Of a stretch of 52,021 nucleotides of DNA, positions 75-51,305 are shown one piece after another. Position 1 is the stretch's first letter; each line of letters starts with the position of its first letter. This stretch comes from Candidatus Nomurabacteria bacterium (lineage in GTDB: Bacteria; Patescibacteriota; Minisyncoccia; Phycocordibacterales; SBAW01), in contig CALQZS010000003.1 in assembly GCA_943349945.1 (NCBI GenBank), forward strand, positions 1 to 52,021, in the 5' to 3' direction. The position numbers and the translations under genes were made by a program. The notes under the pieces are model-generated. The model ran no database searches and was not told the origin of the DNA. It saw nothing but the letters and a program-made list of their open reading frames with translations.

Positions 75-102
75 TTGCATTCCTCAAATATTCTGGTAAA
101 GT
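75..102 (+). promoter_or_regulatory. sigma70-type promoter of rpsF-ssb-rpsR
   Basis: TTGCAT (75-80), a 16-nt spacer, then extended -10 TGgTAAAGT (94-102). The -10 ends 6 nt before ATG 109. Confidence 0.5.
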
Positions 103-108
103 GTTGCC

Positions 109-630
109 ATGGTTACAAAATCGCATCCTGAAGAAGGATTAACCCAAGCGATTGACGAAGGCCGCGAGTCAAACGACCAGCGGATCTACGAAGTCGGCTT
201 CCACATCGTGCCTACTATCCCAGAAGACGGGGTAGCAGCAGTTGTCGAGAAGATCCGCCAAGCGCTTGGGAGTGCTGAAATTATTAGTGAGCAGTTCCCA
301 CAAAAAGTAGCGCTTGCATACACGGTCGAACGTTCCAACGTCGGCAAACGCGAAAAGTACAACGACAGTTACTTTGGCTTTATCAAATTTGCGCTCGAGC
401 GCGAGGCGGTGCCTGCACTTGAGGTGTCTCTTCGTGGGATGCGCGATATTTTGCGCTTCTTGCTTATCGAGACAGTACGCGAAGACATTACCCAGGCACC
501 ACGCCGTGCAGTGTTTGCGTCCGACCGTTTGGAGGGCGAGACAATCAAAAAGCCGGATGCAGAGCCAGAAAAGGCAGGTGCGGTGTCTGATGCAGACATC
601 GACAAGTCGATAGACGCTTTGGTCGCATAA
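109..630 (+). CDS. rpsF: 30S ribosomal protein S6 (with N- and C-terminal extensions)
   Basis: The core (RIYEVGFHIVP..VALAYTVER..YFGFIKF..LRFLLIE) resembles S6. The conserved rpsF-ssb-rpsR order supports it. The start is supported by the promoter geometry. Confidence 0.8.
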   Translation: MVTKSHPEEGLTQAIDEGRESNDQRIYEVGFHIVPTIPEDGVAAVVEKIRQALGSAEIISEQFPQKVALAYTVERSNVGKREKYNDSYFGFIKFALEREAVPALEVSLRGMRDILRFLLIETVREDITQAPRRAVFASDRLEGETIKKPDAEPEKAGAVSDADIDKSIDALVA

Positions 631-648
631 AGGGTATATACTAGTGGT

Positions 649-1101
649 ATGAACAAAGTCATTCTTTTTGGTAACTTGACCCGCGACCCAGAGGTAAAGT
701 CTTTGCCTTCGGGTGCACAAGTAGCGTCGTTTGGCATAGCGACAAACCGCCGTGTCAAAAAGGACGAGCGCTGGGAGGATGTGCCAGAATTCCACAACGT
801 AGTGGTCTTTGGTCGCCAAGCAGAAACCTCGGCCCAGTACCTCAAAAAGGGTAGCCAAGCACTCATCGAAGGTCGCATCCAAACCCGCAGCTGGGACAAC
901 AAAGAGGGGGTCAAACAGTACCGCACCGAGATAGTTGCCGAGCGCGTACAGTTTGGCTCACGCGGCGGCGGTGCAAGTAGCGGCGGTGGGTATGCAGACC
1001 GAAACCCCGACGCTCCGGTCGGGGCCCCGACCAAGGCGTCGGGGGACGATGCAATAGACTACCCCGCAGAAGATATTAATCCAGACGATATTCCATTCTA
1101 A
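649..1101 (+). CDS. ssb: single-stranded DNA-binding protein
   Basis: OB-fold SSB pattern ([25 protein letters not shown]), a Gly-rich linker and the acidic C-terminal tip DDIPF. Confidence 0.95.
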
Positions 1102-1112
1102 TAAAATTATTT

Positions 1113-1310
1113 ATGGCAAAAGACACCTACGTCGCACAGTTTCAGCGTATCGACTACAAAGATACCGAGATACTTAAAAAATTCTTGAACCCGCACGGCA
1201 AGATAATGCCTCGCCGCCGCACCGGCCTCTCTGCCCCAAACCAGCGTGCCCTTGCAGAGGCGGTCAAGCGTGCTCGCTTTATGGCGCTCTTGCCTTACAT
1301 CGTTCGCTAA
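1113..1310 (+). CDS. rpsR: 30S ribosomal protein S18
   Basis: 65 aa; [31 protein letters not shown] is typical of S18. It follows ssb. Confidence 0.95.
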
Positions 1311-1323
1311 GCTTTGCGTATAA

Positions 1324-48916: not shown

Positions 48917-50034
48917 AAAAGGTACTTATTTTCTCTCTTGCATACTACCCGCATGTGGGTGGGGCAGAGGTGGCGGTTAAAGAAATCACTGACCGCCTCA
49001 CAGATATTGAATTTCATATGGTGACCATGCGTTTTGCTGCAGCGGACGCACCACAGGAGCGGGTGGGGAATGTGCTGGTACATAGGATTGGGCAGGGAAG
49101 CAGCAAGGTGCATAAATTTTTATTCCAATTCCACGCGGCGTGGGTGGCGCACAAGCTGCACAAAAAAGAGAAGTTTGATGCAACGTGGGCGGTGATGGCG
49201 CACGGTGCGGGCGTGCCTGCGGCGCTTTTTAAAATATGGCACAAAGATGTGCCATACATTCTGAATCTCCAAGAGGGCGACCCAATTGCACATATCGAAA
49301 AGACAATGTTGCCGCTGTGGCCACTATTTGTACGGGCGTTTACGTTGGCAGACGTGGTGCAGCCGCTCTCGACCTACCTGGGCGCATGGGCGCGCACGCG
49401 CGGATACAAAGGGCCGATAGAAATTATTCCAAACGGAGTAGACGTGAGGCAGTTTGTGGGTGAGCCTGTGCCGCACCAGGGGGTCGTGCTTATAACCACA
49501 TCGCGCTTGGTGCACAAAAATGCGATGGATGATGTTATTGCGGCGCTGCCTATGTTGCCGCACGTAGAGTTCCAAATTTTGGGGACGGGGTCAGAAGAAG
49601 ATCGCTTAAAAGCCCTAGCCAAAAAATTGGGTGTAACAGAGCGAGTAAAATTTGTGGGGTATGTAGACCATGCGCAGCTGCCCGAATATCTACATAAAGC
49701 AGATATTTTTATCCGGCCGTCGCGGAGCGAAGGCTTTGGCGCTTCGTTTGTGGAGGCTATGGCGGCGGGACTACCAGTTATTGCTACACAAGAAGGGGGG
49801 CTCGCAGACTTTTTGTTTGATGCAAAAAAGAATCCAGATAAAGCGCCAACTGGTTTTGCGGTGGACAAAAACTCGCCTGCACAAATTGCCGAGGCGGTTA
49901 AAACTATTTTGGCTCAGCCACAGCAAGCGGGGGAGGTGGTAAAAAACGCCCAAGCAATGGTGCAGGAAAAGTACGACTGGGACACAGTCGCGCGCCATAT
50001 GCGCGAGCGGGTATTTAGCAAACTTTTTGCATAA
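48913..50034 (+). CDS. glycosyltransferase family 4
   Basis: N-terminal YYPHVGGAEV and C-terminal PSRSEGFGASFVEAMAAGLPVIATQEGGLADF. ATGA overlap with the upstream gene. Confidence 0.85.
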   Translation: MKKVLIFSLAYYPHVGGAEVAVKEITDRLTDIEFHMVTMRFAAADAPQERVGNVLVHRIGQGSSKVHKFLFQFHAAWVAHKLHKKEKFDATWAVMAHGAGVPAALFKIWHKDVPYILNLQEGDPIAHIEKTMLPLWPLFVRAFTLADVVQPLSTYLGAWARTRGYKGPIEIIPNGVDVRQFVGEPVPHQGVVLITTSRLVHKNAMDDVIAALPMLPHVEFQILGTGSEEDRLKALAKKLGVTERVKFVGYVDHAQLPEYLHKADIFIRPSRSEGFGASFVEAMAAGLPVIATQEGGLADFLFDAKKNPDKAPTGFAVDKNSPAQIAEAVKTILAQPQQAGEVVKNAQAMVQEKYDWDTVARHMRERVFSKLFA

Positions 50035-50066
50035 GAGAATCTAATTAATCGAAAGTTATACAGCTA

Positions 50067-50095
50067 TTGACAAAAATATCCAAACAGTGTATAAT
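50067..50095 (+). promoter_or_regulatory. perfect consensus sigma70 promoter
   Basis: TTGACA (50067-50072), a 17-nt spacer, then TATAAT (50090-50095). It is the only perfect consensus promoter seen in the window. Confidence 0.65.
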
Positions 50096-50101
50096 TAAAC
50101 A

Positions 50102-50244
50102 AAGGTTCTTTTACATCAACTTGCATTTGCCACAGCAGAAAGCGGCTCACCCCCGGGCATCTCTCTGCTGTGGCAAATGCAAGTTGAGTTCTGGATTTTT
50201 CGTTCTTTTGGCCCGGCTTTGAAAAAAGCCGGGCCATTATTTTT
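50102..50244 (+). ncRNA. candidate small RNA (unknown family): long hairpin plus intrinsic terminator
   Basis: 22-bp perfect stem (50117-50138 / 50165-50186) with a 26-nt loop. Then terminator GGCCCGGCTT-tgaaaa-AAGCCGGGCC + ATTATTTTT (50210-50244). No plausible ORF. Confidence 0.4.
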
Positions 50245-50312
50245 GGAAAAAGTCTTCTGTGATGGGGTGGTAACTTCTCGCCCTTAGGGCAGGTTTGATA
50301 TAGAGTTACTGT

Positions 50313-51305
50313 ATGAAGATTCTCATCGCCACAGGCATATATCCGCCCCAGGTAGGCGGGCCAGCATACTATACAAAAGGGCTGGAGCGGGCTCTTGGCG
50401 AGGCCGGGCACGAGACAAAAGTGGTGACTTACGGGGCGCTGATGCGCCTATCTGCGGGCCTGCGCCACGCCGCTTTTTTTGTGCGCCTTTTGCCAAAGCT
50501 TGTGTGGGCAGACAGGGTCATCGCGCTCGACACCTTTAGTGTGGCGTGGCCGCTTGCGCTTGCGACAAGGTTCGTACGCGTGCCCTTTGTGCTGCGCACG
50601 GGGGGAGACTTTGTATGGGAGGAATACTTGGAGCGCACAGGCGAGGATATACTCCTTAAAGATTTTTATACTGCGCCGCGAGCGTACACCACAAAAGAAA
50701 AATTGATACTACGCGCAACGCGGTACGTATTGCGCCACGCGGATAAAATTATTTTTAGCACTGCGCTACAGCGGGATATTTGGATTGCTGCATACAAAAT
50801 CCCCGAAAGCAAAACACGTATTATAGAAAACGCGATTGACGCGCCACTTCCAGGTAGTTCGCCCACACAAAAAAACTTTTTGTGGTATGTGCGTCCGACT
50901 GCGTTTAAAAACAGCGCTCGGCTACACGCAGTCTTTGCAAAAGCAAAAGAGCAGTACCCGGATATTATTTTAGAGGAAGGGCAGTTGCCCAAACAGCAGT
51001 TGCTCGAGAAAATGGCGAGTTGTTATGCGGTGCTGCTCCCATCCCTTACCGAGATAAGCCCTAACTATATACTGGACGCTTTGCGCTTTAAGAAGCCGTT
51101 TATCATGGACAAATACTCTGGTTTGGCAGAGAAGTTGGGGCCGTATGGTATGTTGGTCGACCCCCTCGACGCGGATGATATTGCAAAGGGTGTTGCAGAG
51201 TTGGCGAGCGAGGAAGGGTACGCGCGTGCGGTGGCTCGTGCGGCAGCGTTTAGTGAGGTGCGCACGTACAAAGAGGTTGCACAAGATTTTATAAAAATTC
51301 TATAG
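50313..51305 (+). CDS. glycosyltransferase (GT4-like)
   Basis: MKILIATGIYPPQVGGPAYY N-terminus and a GT-B C-terminal half. TAGAGT lies 6 nt upstream of the ATG. Confidence 0.7.
   Translation: MKILIATGIYPPQVGGPAYYTKGLERALGEAGHETKVVTYGALMRLSAGLRHAAFFVRLLPKLVWADRVIALDTFSVAWPLALATRFVRVPFVLRTGGDFVWEEYLERTGEDILLKDFYTAPRAYTTKEKLILRATRYVLRHADKIIFSTALQRDIWIAAYKIPESKTRIIENAIDAPLPGSSPTQKNFLWYVRPTAFKNSARLHAVFAKAKEQYPDIILEEGQLPKQQLLEKMASCYAVLLPSLTEISPNYILDALRFKKPFIMDKYSGLAEKLGPYGMLVDPLDADDIAKGVAELASEEGYARAVARAAAFSEVRTYKEVAQDFIKIL

Follow-up and report, generated by a model that had tools for sequence, protein, structure and literature searches.

Bacterial leaderless genes have a known signature, a Pribnow box 6-8 nt before the start, which marks group C of the GeneMarkS-2 classification (PMC6028130). 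Group C genomes are common in both the Actinobacteria and the Deinococcus-Thermus (PMC6028130; Zheng et al., 2011, PMC3160421). In Deinococcus, a TANNNT motif 6-7 bp before about 30% of open reading frames (ORFs) was demonstrated by experiment to act as a promoter; its T in position 1, A in position 2 and T in position 6 are nearly invariant, and the second motif upstream of ORFs is GGAG, the ribosome-binding site (RBS) (Zhong et al., 2025, PMC12340547). The Shine-Dalgarno (SD) sequence and its partner in the 16S rRNA (anti-SD) have been lost or are unused in Flavobacteria/Bacteroidetes, insect endosymbionts and hemotropic mycoplasmas (Lim et al., 2012, PMC3457768; PMC6107199), and a subgroup of Parcubacteria has a 16S rRNA without CCUCCU, the functional meaning of which was called unclear (Tsurumaki et al., 2022, RNA 28:1041, PMC9297842). 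Here we analyzed a stretch of 52,021 nt (contig CALQZS010000003.1, positions 1 to 52,021; called the window throughout) from a bacterium of the candidate phyla radiation (CPR), in which a TANNNT hexamer stands directly before the ATG of many genes. It is likely, from the promoter and 16S rRNA sequences taken together, that this lineage does without SD initiation and uses leaderless mRNAs from -10-adjacent ATGs plus stop/start-coupled genes.

The window and group C are alike in the placement of TANNNT 6-8 nt upstream, in the predicted transcription start site (TSS) at the start codon and in the fraction of genes concerned (25-50% of operons in group C). However, the other genes of group C carry SD sites and its 16S rRNA keeps CCUCC, whereas the window has neither SD enrichment nor an anti-SD; the SD sites that a dual model expects at the remaining genes were not found there. 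The -10 boxes of the window also differ from those of group C in standing at operon-internal-looking sites, 9-40 nt after a co-directional gene. CPR bacteria were not found discussed in the text of the GeneMarkS-2 paper (PMC6028130), and the word "leaderless" is absent from the paper on Parcubacteria (PMC9297842). The window and its relatives share the anti-SD loss of those Parcubacteria, to which the promoter-at-ATG architecture is added here. The other anti-SD-less or SD-independent bacteria have leadered mRNAs with an A-rich leader or no signal, whereas the window has a promoter element at a fixed distance before the ATG, which implies no leader. Such SD-independent and anti-SD-less bacteria are said to be the subject of a 2018 study by Amin et al., and a "-10-motif adjacent to ORFs" was reportedly described for Deinococcus-Thermus by de Groot et al. 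in 2014. The TANNNT placement is the same as in Deinococcus-Thermus, but the GGAG second motif is missing here, and here the arrangement is known from sequence alone. In mammalian mitochondria the mRNAs are mostly leaderless, SD has no role and the transcripts are made by processing. Most mRNAs of haloarchaea are also leaderless, and SD has no role at their 5' ends (e.g. Haloferax, PMC3986360). The polymerases and promoters of these two systems differ from those considered here (the archaeal TATA box lies about 26 nt upstream), so any likeness would be convergence, not relatedness. We found no published report of leaderless architecture in CPR bacteria in a search that left most subscription-journal papers outside. 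The components have each been published, and what appears to be new is an SD-free leaderless architecture in an anti-SD-less CPR lineage, with promoters at cluster-internal genes.

An earlier note on this DNA, made by reading the sequence, had listed 16 hexamers with their ATGs, and all coordinates and strands proved exact in the window. Twelve sites have a 6-nt spacer between hexamer and ATG, three (efp, g2674 and secD) a 7-nt one, and one (ftsK) an 8-nt one. The start codon was ATG at 16 of 16 sites, and TATACT was the commonest hexamer (5/16). The sites are as follows.

94..111, plus strand: rpsF, TGgTAAAGT, 6-nt spacer, ATG 109, the sole start codon upstream of the S6 domain
637..651, plus strand: ssb, TATACT, 6-nt spacer, ATG 649; position 1 of the Pfam SSB model aligns with residue 1; 18 nt from the rpsF stop
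1958..1973, minus strand: efp, TACAAT, 7-nt spacer, ATG 1960, with TTGCAG 17 nt upstream; the 196-aa product of the independent gene caller corresponds to ATG 1960
2661..2676, plus strand: g2674, TATACT, 7-nt spacer, ATG 2674; 14 nt after the sigma-factor stop
6691..6710, minus strand: ftsK, TGgTAGAAT, 8-nt spacer, ATG 6693
10489..10503, plus strand: g10501, TACTAT, 6-nt spacer, ATG
11228..11242, plus strand: g11240, TACTAT, 6-nt spacer, ATG
11967..11984, plus strand: g11982, TGgTAGAGT, 6-nt spacer, ATG
22014..22031, plus strand: g22029, TGcTATACT, 6-nt spacer, ATG; the caller preferred 22248
22990..23007, plus strand: g23005, TGcTATGAT, 6-nt spacer, ATG
30029..30047, plus strand: secD, TGgTATCCT, 7-nt spacer, ATG 30045; identical arrangement in relative L087
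38814..38828, plus strand: NUDIX gene, TATACT, 6-nt spacer, ATG 38826, with TCGACT 17 nt upstream
41851..41865, plus strand: murC, TAGACT, 6-nt spacer, ATG 41863; the hexamer opens with the TAG stop codon of murD
43871..43888, plus strand: g43886, TGgTACACT, 6-nt spacer, ATG; the L087 ortholog has TGaTATACT, spacer 6, before ATGTCAAAA
45369..45386, plus strand: type IV secretion system (T4SS) coupling-protein gene, TGaTATACT, 6-nt spacer, ATG 45384; L087 has TGgTATACT and L090 TGgTATAGT, both with spacer 6
50301..50315, plus strand: glycosyltransferase gene g50313, TAGAGT, 6-nt spacer, ATG; identical arrangement in L087

The frequency of the arrangement was then determined independently of these choices. 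When no gene calls were used, TANNNT-N6-ATG occurred 25 times on the two strands of the window, and 17 of the 25 opened an ORF of at least 80 aa, while TANNNT-Nk-ATG at other values of k occurred about 1-9 times. A motif-independent set of starts was formed by taking, in every ORF that reached 100 aa and did not overlap another, the first ATG. Among 42 such starts in the window, TANNNT was found at spacer 6 in 11, at spacer 7 in 2 and at spacer 8 in 2, against a mean of 1.1 at other offsets (Poisson P = 2.9e-8 for spacer 6 and 2.4e-6 for spacers 6-8). The chance rate had been put at well under one of about 35 starts, which was too low; a set of 35-42 starts actually gives about 1 at any fixed offset.

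The same counts were made in relatives, which comprised three contigs syntenic with the window, obtained via MurC homologs (59-69% identity), and 61 metagenome loci, obtained via SecF homologs (41-72% identity). Among the habitats of the relatives are the Hainich and comparable aquifers. Loci with a SecF identity of at least 60% contributed 148 genes, of which 21 had the site at spacer 6 and 25 at spacer 7, over a background of about 3.6 per offset (P ~3e-22), that is, 46/148 at spacers 6-7 compared with about 7 expected. More distant SecF loci had 19 sites at spacer 6 and 24 at spacer 7 among 231 genes, with a background of about 8. Loci of Firmicutes, Proteobacteria and Bacteroidetes, taken among the matches listed in a MurC-alignment scan of genome contigs and passed through the same pipeline, were flat and showed no TANNNT spacer peak. 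A profile of TANNNT frequency against distance to the start had been proposed earlier as a check on the full genome; the counts made here have a sharp peak, at spacer 6 in the window and at spacers 6-7 in the relatives' loci.

The starts of an independent gene caller agreed with those of the list at 14 of 16 genes. The first mismatch was 43898 instead of 43886, and the L087 ortholog, TGaTATACT-N6-ATGTCAAAA, backs 43886; the second was 22248 instead of 22029. Pfam domain boundaries agree with the proposed ATGs of ssb, efp, murC and rpsF. Three further genes fit the pattern, the last of them probably.

1102..1115, plus strand: rpsR, TAAAAT, 5-nt spacer, ATG 1113; absent from the earlier list; the hexamer abuts the ssb stop, with a gap of 11 nt
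4065..4081, minus strand: recA, TAGATT, 8-nt spacer, ATG 4067; weak, and absent from the earlier list
2042..2056, plus strand: candidate site of the extracytoplasmic-function (ECF) sigma factor gene, TATGCT, 6-nt spacer, ATG 2054; the caller chose ATG 2036

Altogether, 16-19 of about 47 called genes had a -10 box at spacer 5-8, 12-13 overlapped or abutted the upstream gene, and about 15 did neither. The boxes had been taken to suggest pervasive leaderless mRNAs; the pattern takes in about 40% of the genes (about 56% of those that are not stop/start-coupled) and not every gene. The label RAYT given to g11240 (11240-11923) is weakly founded, since its sole Pfam match, to Y1_Tnp, reached 19.5 bits (E = 0.0011) where the cut-off is 23 bits.

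Where starts are orthologous, the relatives have kept the box in its place but with varying hexamers. In all seven orthologs of g23005 a -10 box precedes the aligned ATG by 6-8 nt, and it reads TACAAT, TACTAT, TATACT or TATAAT. The murC orthologs of L087 and L089 have TAAACT and TACAAT, respectively, both at spacer 6, while that of L090 is ATGA-coupled to murD instead. For rsmI, the coupled arrangement is that of the window and L087, and L090 has a -10, TAGAGT, at spacer 6. Orthologs of murC and rsmI thus switch between an own -10 and stop/start coupling.

We analyzed the surroundings of the box by aligning 125 non-redundant ATG-adjacent sites (window and relatives) on the hexamer, with 14,981 control TANNNT sites for comparison. 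Upstream of the hexamer, T at -3 had a frequency of 0.55 in the sites and 0.28 in the controls, and G at -2 had 0.52 and 0.23. Farther upstream, T at -23 (0.53 compared with 0.27), T at -22 (0.45 compared with 0.29) and G at -21 (0.37 compared with 0.22) were also enriched. The P values were ~1e-10 to 1e-12 for the TG of an extended -10 and 6e-10 to 1e-4 for TTG at -23..-21, which corresponds to a 17-nt spacer. These flanks indicate that the ATG-adjacent TANNNT is a genuine sigma70 -10 element, and because TGn and TTG are contacts of the sigma factor and not of the ribosome, the box is read as a promoter rather than a ribosome-binding motif. TATACT is also the -10 of both rRNA promoters, as had been noted before.

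18007..18035, plus strand: promoter of the 23S-5S rRNA unit, TTGACA-N17-TATACT
32882..32909, plus strand: promoter of the 16S rRNA gene, TTGACT-N16-TATACT

The presence of a -10 box depended on the distance to the upstream gene. In the window, none of 11 genes with a same-strand gap of at most 8 nt or an overlap had the box, while all 6 genes with a gap of 9-40 nt had it (5/6 without murC, whose hexamer touches a stop). When the window and close relatives were combined and hexamers touching a stop were removed, the figures were 1/52 for gaps of at most 8 nt and 15/27 for gaps of 9-40 nt. Control offsets 13-16 were empty. The 11 coupled window genes (ATGA twice, TAAATG, TAAtATG and others) had neither a -10 at spacer 5-8 nor an SD. 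Three of their junctions, all of which had been read correctly before, are given here.

12597..12602, plus strand: TAAATG stop/start junction from g11982 to g12600, coupled class, no -10 box
40516..40519, plus strand: ATGA overlap of the racemase gene and murD, coupled class
48913..48916, plus strand: ATGA overlap of the epimerase gene and GT1, coupled class

The earlier note had placed the -10 boxes at operon-first genes. The boxes stand, but the label "operon-first" is inaccurate, because at least 6 of the 16 lie 9-39 nt after a co-directional gene. The gap was 9 nt for murC, 14 nt for g2674, 18 nt for ssb, 22 nt for g23005, 30 nt for g45384 and 39 nt for rpsF, which follows tatD in the longer contig L152. 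The -10 boxes of these six genes lie in or just after the preceding ORF, and no terminators were seen in the 9-40 nt gaps.

The 16S rRNA of the window has no anti-SD at the canonical place, its tail reading GGAAUAAUUCACAU where the bacterial consensus of the Rfam alignment has GGAUCACCUCCUUU.

34689..34702, plus strand: 16S rRNA 3' tail GGAAUAAUUCACAU for GGAUCACCUCCUUU, Rfam SSU model positions 1519-1533

Nine related 16S genes end in the tail GGAAYRAUUCAA or, in L010, in GGAUUAAUUCC; none of these tails has CCUCC, and the motif was absent at the canonical place in every related 16S recovered. Helix 45, directly 5' of the tail, shows compensatory changes among relatives, so these 16S genes are functional and not assembly errors. 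Since the 3' tail is without CCUCC, the ribosome would be unable to use SD pairing. Consistent with this, SD-like 4-mers at -18..-4 relative to the start were found upstream of 5% of the window genes, which equals background, whereas the same procedure gave 54% in Firmicutes and 30% in Proteobacteria. The 5-mers complementary to the new 16S tail had no positional peak before or after the starts.

A CCUCC farther downstream (at about 34818 in the window, and in L092) was considered as a displaced anti-SD and rejected, because the L092 copy lies in a covarying spacer hairpin and the position is not conserved. The SD-like match at 39453, earlier called possible chance, is probably just that, in a genome that has no anti-SD; the locus (39411-39716) is a hypothetical gene after tRNA-Leu, whose ATG 39453 is preceded at 7 nt by GAGGAG, and TATAGT lies 30 nt upstream. 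A hairpin stands directly 3' of the 16S tail (window 34703-34760), with compensatory changes (5 pairs differ on both sides) and followed by an invariant GGCGAT. It recurs in L087, L089, L090, L092, L102, L105, L106 and L108, and could be a processing stem or an rRNA 3' extension.

We propose that gene starts of this lineage fall into two classes. Genes of the first class (about 40% of genes; about 56% of the non-abutting ones) would each have their own sigma70-type promoter, mostly a -10, plain or extended (TGnTAnnnT), accompanied by a weak -35 TTG at 17 nt, and between the end of the -10 and the ATG there would be 6 nt (5-8). Since RNA polymerase initiates some 7 nt past the -10, the first base of the transcript would be the A of the AUG; the reading that the boxes put transcription start at or next to this A, and so give leaderless mRNAs, is supported by the spacing and the flanks. 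Of the cistrons with independent initiation, about half would have an RNA beginning at the A of the AUG, and 70S ribosomes together with initiator tRNA would bind such mRNA directly. Where the promoters lie 9-40 nt after a co-directional gene and partly inside its 3' end, each such cistron would receive a fresh 5'-AUG end. Genes of the second class, which overlap the upstream gene or follow it within 8 nt (ATGA, TAAATG, TAAnATG), have no -10 and presumably use termination-reinitiation coupling. We also lean, with less confidence than for the lineage itself, towards a wider form of the proposal, in which a whole Parcubacteria subgroup has dropped SD initiation and every cistron, even within clusters, has its own AUG-start promoter or relies on stop/start reinitiation.

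Several observations weigh against this proposal. A scan of the window for both promoter hexamers showed no excess of full promoters over shuffles, and the sites would therefore be mainly -10 or extended -10 promoters with a weak -35. The -35 is seen in aggregate only; the case leans on this aggregate signal, on the -10 and on the TGn. Placing the TSS at the A of the ATG is a deduction from polymerase geometry, and the absence of CCUCC was judged at or near the canonical place. The sample was 52 kb of one genome and about 0.5 Mb of relatives' fragments rather than a whole genome, and the gene and start calls in relatives were crude (first ATG, ORF length alone). The samples from further CPR lineages, among them Saccharibacteria, Peribacteria and Nomurabacteria, were of 2-16 genes, too few for relating anti-SD status to the signal. 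Contact with the upstream stop codon occurs in the murC hexamer of the window and in 4/11 hexamers of the 9-20 nt bin of close relatives; the murC site is weaker evidence because its hexamer begins with the murD TAG. Finally, only about 40% of genes fit, and about 15 are in neither class, including rplJ, the peptidoglycan-binding gene 8153, hyp247, the racemase gene and hyp101. In short, the case is built on DNA sequence: the anatomy is observed, and the TSS position and ribosome loading follow from it by deduction.

Two of the loci that depart from the usual spacing can be described further.

15220..15434, plus strand: rplJ exception, TTGACA-N17-TAATGT at 15220-15248, ATG 15432
25936..25968, both strands: divergent starts of GT4 (minus) and Bac_transf (plus), 27 nt apart, with overlapping -10 boxes

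The promoter of rplJ lies about 175 nt upstream of ATG 15432, and neither a -10 at spacer 5-8 nor an SD was found, so that the rplJ mRNA is apparently leadered despite an organism without anti-SD. The rplJ leader (15220-15431) is structured-looking, and the L10 leader family of Rfam was not detected in it. The -10 of GT4, TATAAT on the minus strand, and that of Bac_transf, TATTAT on the plus strand, overlap with an offset of 1 bp and stand 11 nt from their respective ATGs, so that leaders of about 4-5 nt would result. In L092, L094, L101 and L114 the orthologs likewise have a spacing of 11-12 nt. Other off-spacing boxes were found at epimerase2 (9 nt), rplJ (12 nt) and rplL (4 nt).

These boxes at 4 or 9-12 nt would suit an explanation in which the promoters are real but the leaderless route is minor, the short distances reflecting compaction and the genes being translated from read-through polycistronic mRNA (70S scanning or reinitiation) or from leaders of 1-5 nt. 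The terminator-free 9-40 nt gaps would permit such read-through, and the coupled genes mean that reinitiation must work in this organism. Compaction alone, however, would produce broad distances and not a peak at 6-7 nt that is sharp to 1-2 nt and kept across orthologs despite hexamer turnover. The same spacing was found at efp, ftsK, secD, g10501 and g50313, which have large gaps or divergent neighbours and hence available room, and ATG at all 16 sites is as expected of leaderless starts. We regard this explanation as improbable.

The box could also be a non-SD translation signal within leaders or polycistronic mRNAs, as in Bacteroidetes (GeneMarkS-2 group B), for example an AU-rich element read by S1 or a partner of the 16S tail. 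A ribosome without anti-SD needs some replacement signal, the box is located where an RBS would be, many sites are just 9-40 nt after a co-directional gene with a terminator-free gap, and the conservation of the tail GGAAYRAUUCAA among relatives hints at a function. However, the TG at the extended -10 and the TTG 17 nt upstream are sigma-factor contacts, the hexamers match the -10 of the rRNA promoters, and the coupled genes, which would be most in need of a translation signal, are without the box. Furthermore, TANNNT is not complementary to the tail, and 5-mers that are complementary form no positional peak. This makes a translation signal more doubtful still than compaction. Chance or artefact (AT-rich intergenic DNA, "TA" supplied by stop codons, or ATGs picked after TANNNT), towards which the murC hexamer, the 4/11 stop-touching hexamers of close relatives in the 9-20 nt class and the by-eye inspection of starts in the earlier note might point, has a negligible probability and is effectively refuted, since motif-independent starts and the gene-call-free count gave the same sharp peak (P 3e-8), control offsets 13-16 were empty, the pattern outlasted the removal of stop-touching hexamers, the independent gene caller agreed at 14/16 starts and the control phyla showed nothing. 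Stop codons as the source of "TA" thus apply to murC and a minority of the relatives' sites, and were rejected as a general cause.

The proposal of -10-adjacent leaderless genes beside coupled ones would offer a concrete answer to how anti-SD-less Parcubacteria start translation, in whom the 2022 paper left the functional meaning of the loss unclear, and its wider form, if true, would account for the anti-SD loss reported there. Promoter position, and not an RBS, would then define most start codons, and operon-like clusters would be nested leaderless units. On the wider form, these bacteria, of free-living size, would be the nearest counterpart among bacteria to the leaderless translation of mitochondria and haloarchaea.

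If the wider form is true, standard gene callers would also systematically misplace starts in such genomes, and RBS-based callers do seem to misplace starts in this clade. Four of about 47 caller starts in the window appear wrong: those of a kinase gene (32269 instead of 32293), Bac_transf (26041 instead of 25966), h77/h81 (43898 instead of 43886) and possibly g22029 (22248 instead of 22029). The caller start of L087 murC (10001) also appears wrong, being 10 codons short. Taken together, the -10 rule and orthologs settle these cases, so a start model for leaderless genes, with the RBS component left out, would help CPR annotation.

The GC content of the window is about 51%. Its 52,021 bp form the beginning of contig ena:ERZ27280278:k141_177677 (76.4 kb), and the metagenome-assembled genomes GCA_943353785.1, GCA_943353435.1 and GCA_943349885.1 are of the same species. 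The source is treated as an uncultured CPR bacterium of the Parcubacteria/Paceibacteria type, an assignment based on the names of MurC homologs and on CPR traits. The nearest MurC homologs are labelled Patescibacteria, Kaiserbacteria, Parcubacteria or Paceibacterota by their sources, and the traits seen are unlinked rRNA genes, a long 23S rRNA, no bL9 after rpsR and many proteins without Pfam match. In the window, rplI (bL9) was not found after rpsF-ssb-rpsR (rpsR 1113-1310), nor were rplK-rplA (uL11, uL1) before rplJ-rplL (15432-16401). These absences are consistent with the reduced ribosome of CPR bacteria, as well as with the published overlap between loss of the anti-SD and loss of uL1. 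Other window genes include peptidoglycan, Sec and glycosyltransferase genes.

The rRNA genes of the window form a 23S-5S unit at 18307-21995 and a separate 16S gene at 33237-34702, which is unlinked from the 23S gene, 11 kb downstream on the same strand and with its own promoter. The 23S rRNA (18307-21733) measures 3427 nt compared with 2925 nt in the model, which corresponds to about 500 nt of insertion(s), and a 50-aa ORF was called within the gene at about 21161-21313.

A perfect consensus promoter, TTGACA-N17-TATAAT with 12/12 matches, was found at 50067-50095 (plus strand), in the 278-nt gap upstream of g50313. It is followed on its 3' side by a long near-perfect hairpin at about 50115-50188 and by a strong terminator hairpin with a T-run at 50209-50245. 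The unit of promoter, hairpin and terminator at 50067-50245 (plus strand) looks like a candidate gene for a highly expressed small RNA of about 140 nt. The candidate RNA (50102-50245) matched no Rfam family above threshold, generic hairpin matches being below it, and it was absent from the fetched relatives; the gap of L087 at that position is just 39 nt. The coding sequence of murD holds a perfect palindrome at 41676-41719, which is 44 nt long with a 20-bp stem: CCACGTCATGCATGGTTTGATATATCAAACCATGCATGACGTGG.

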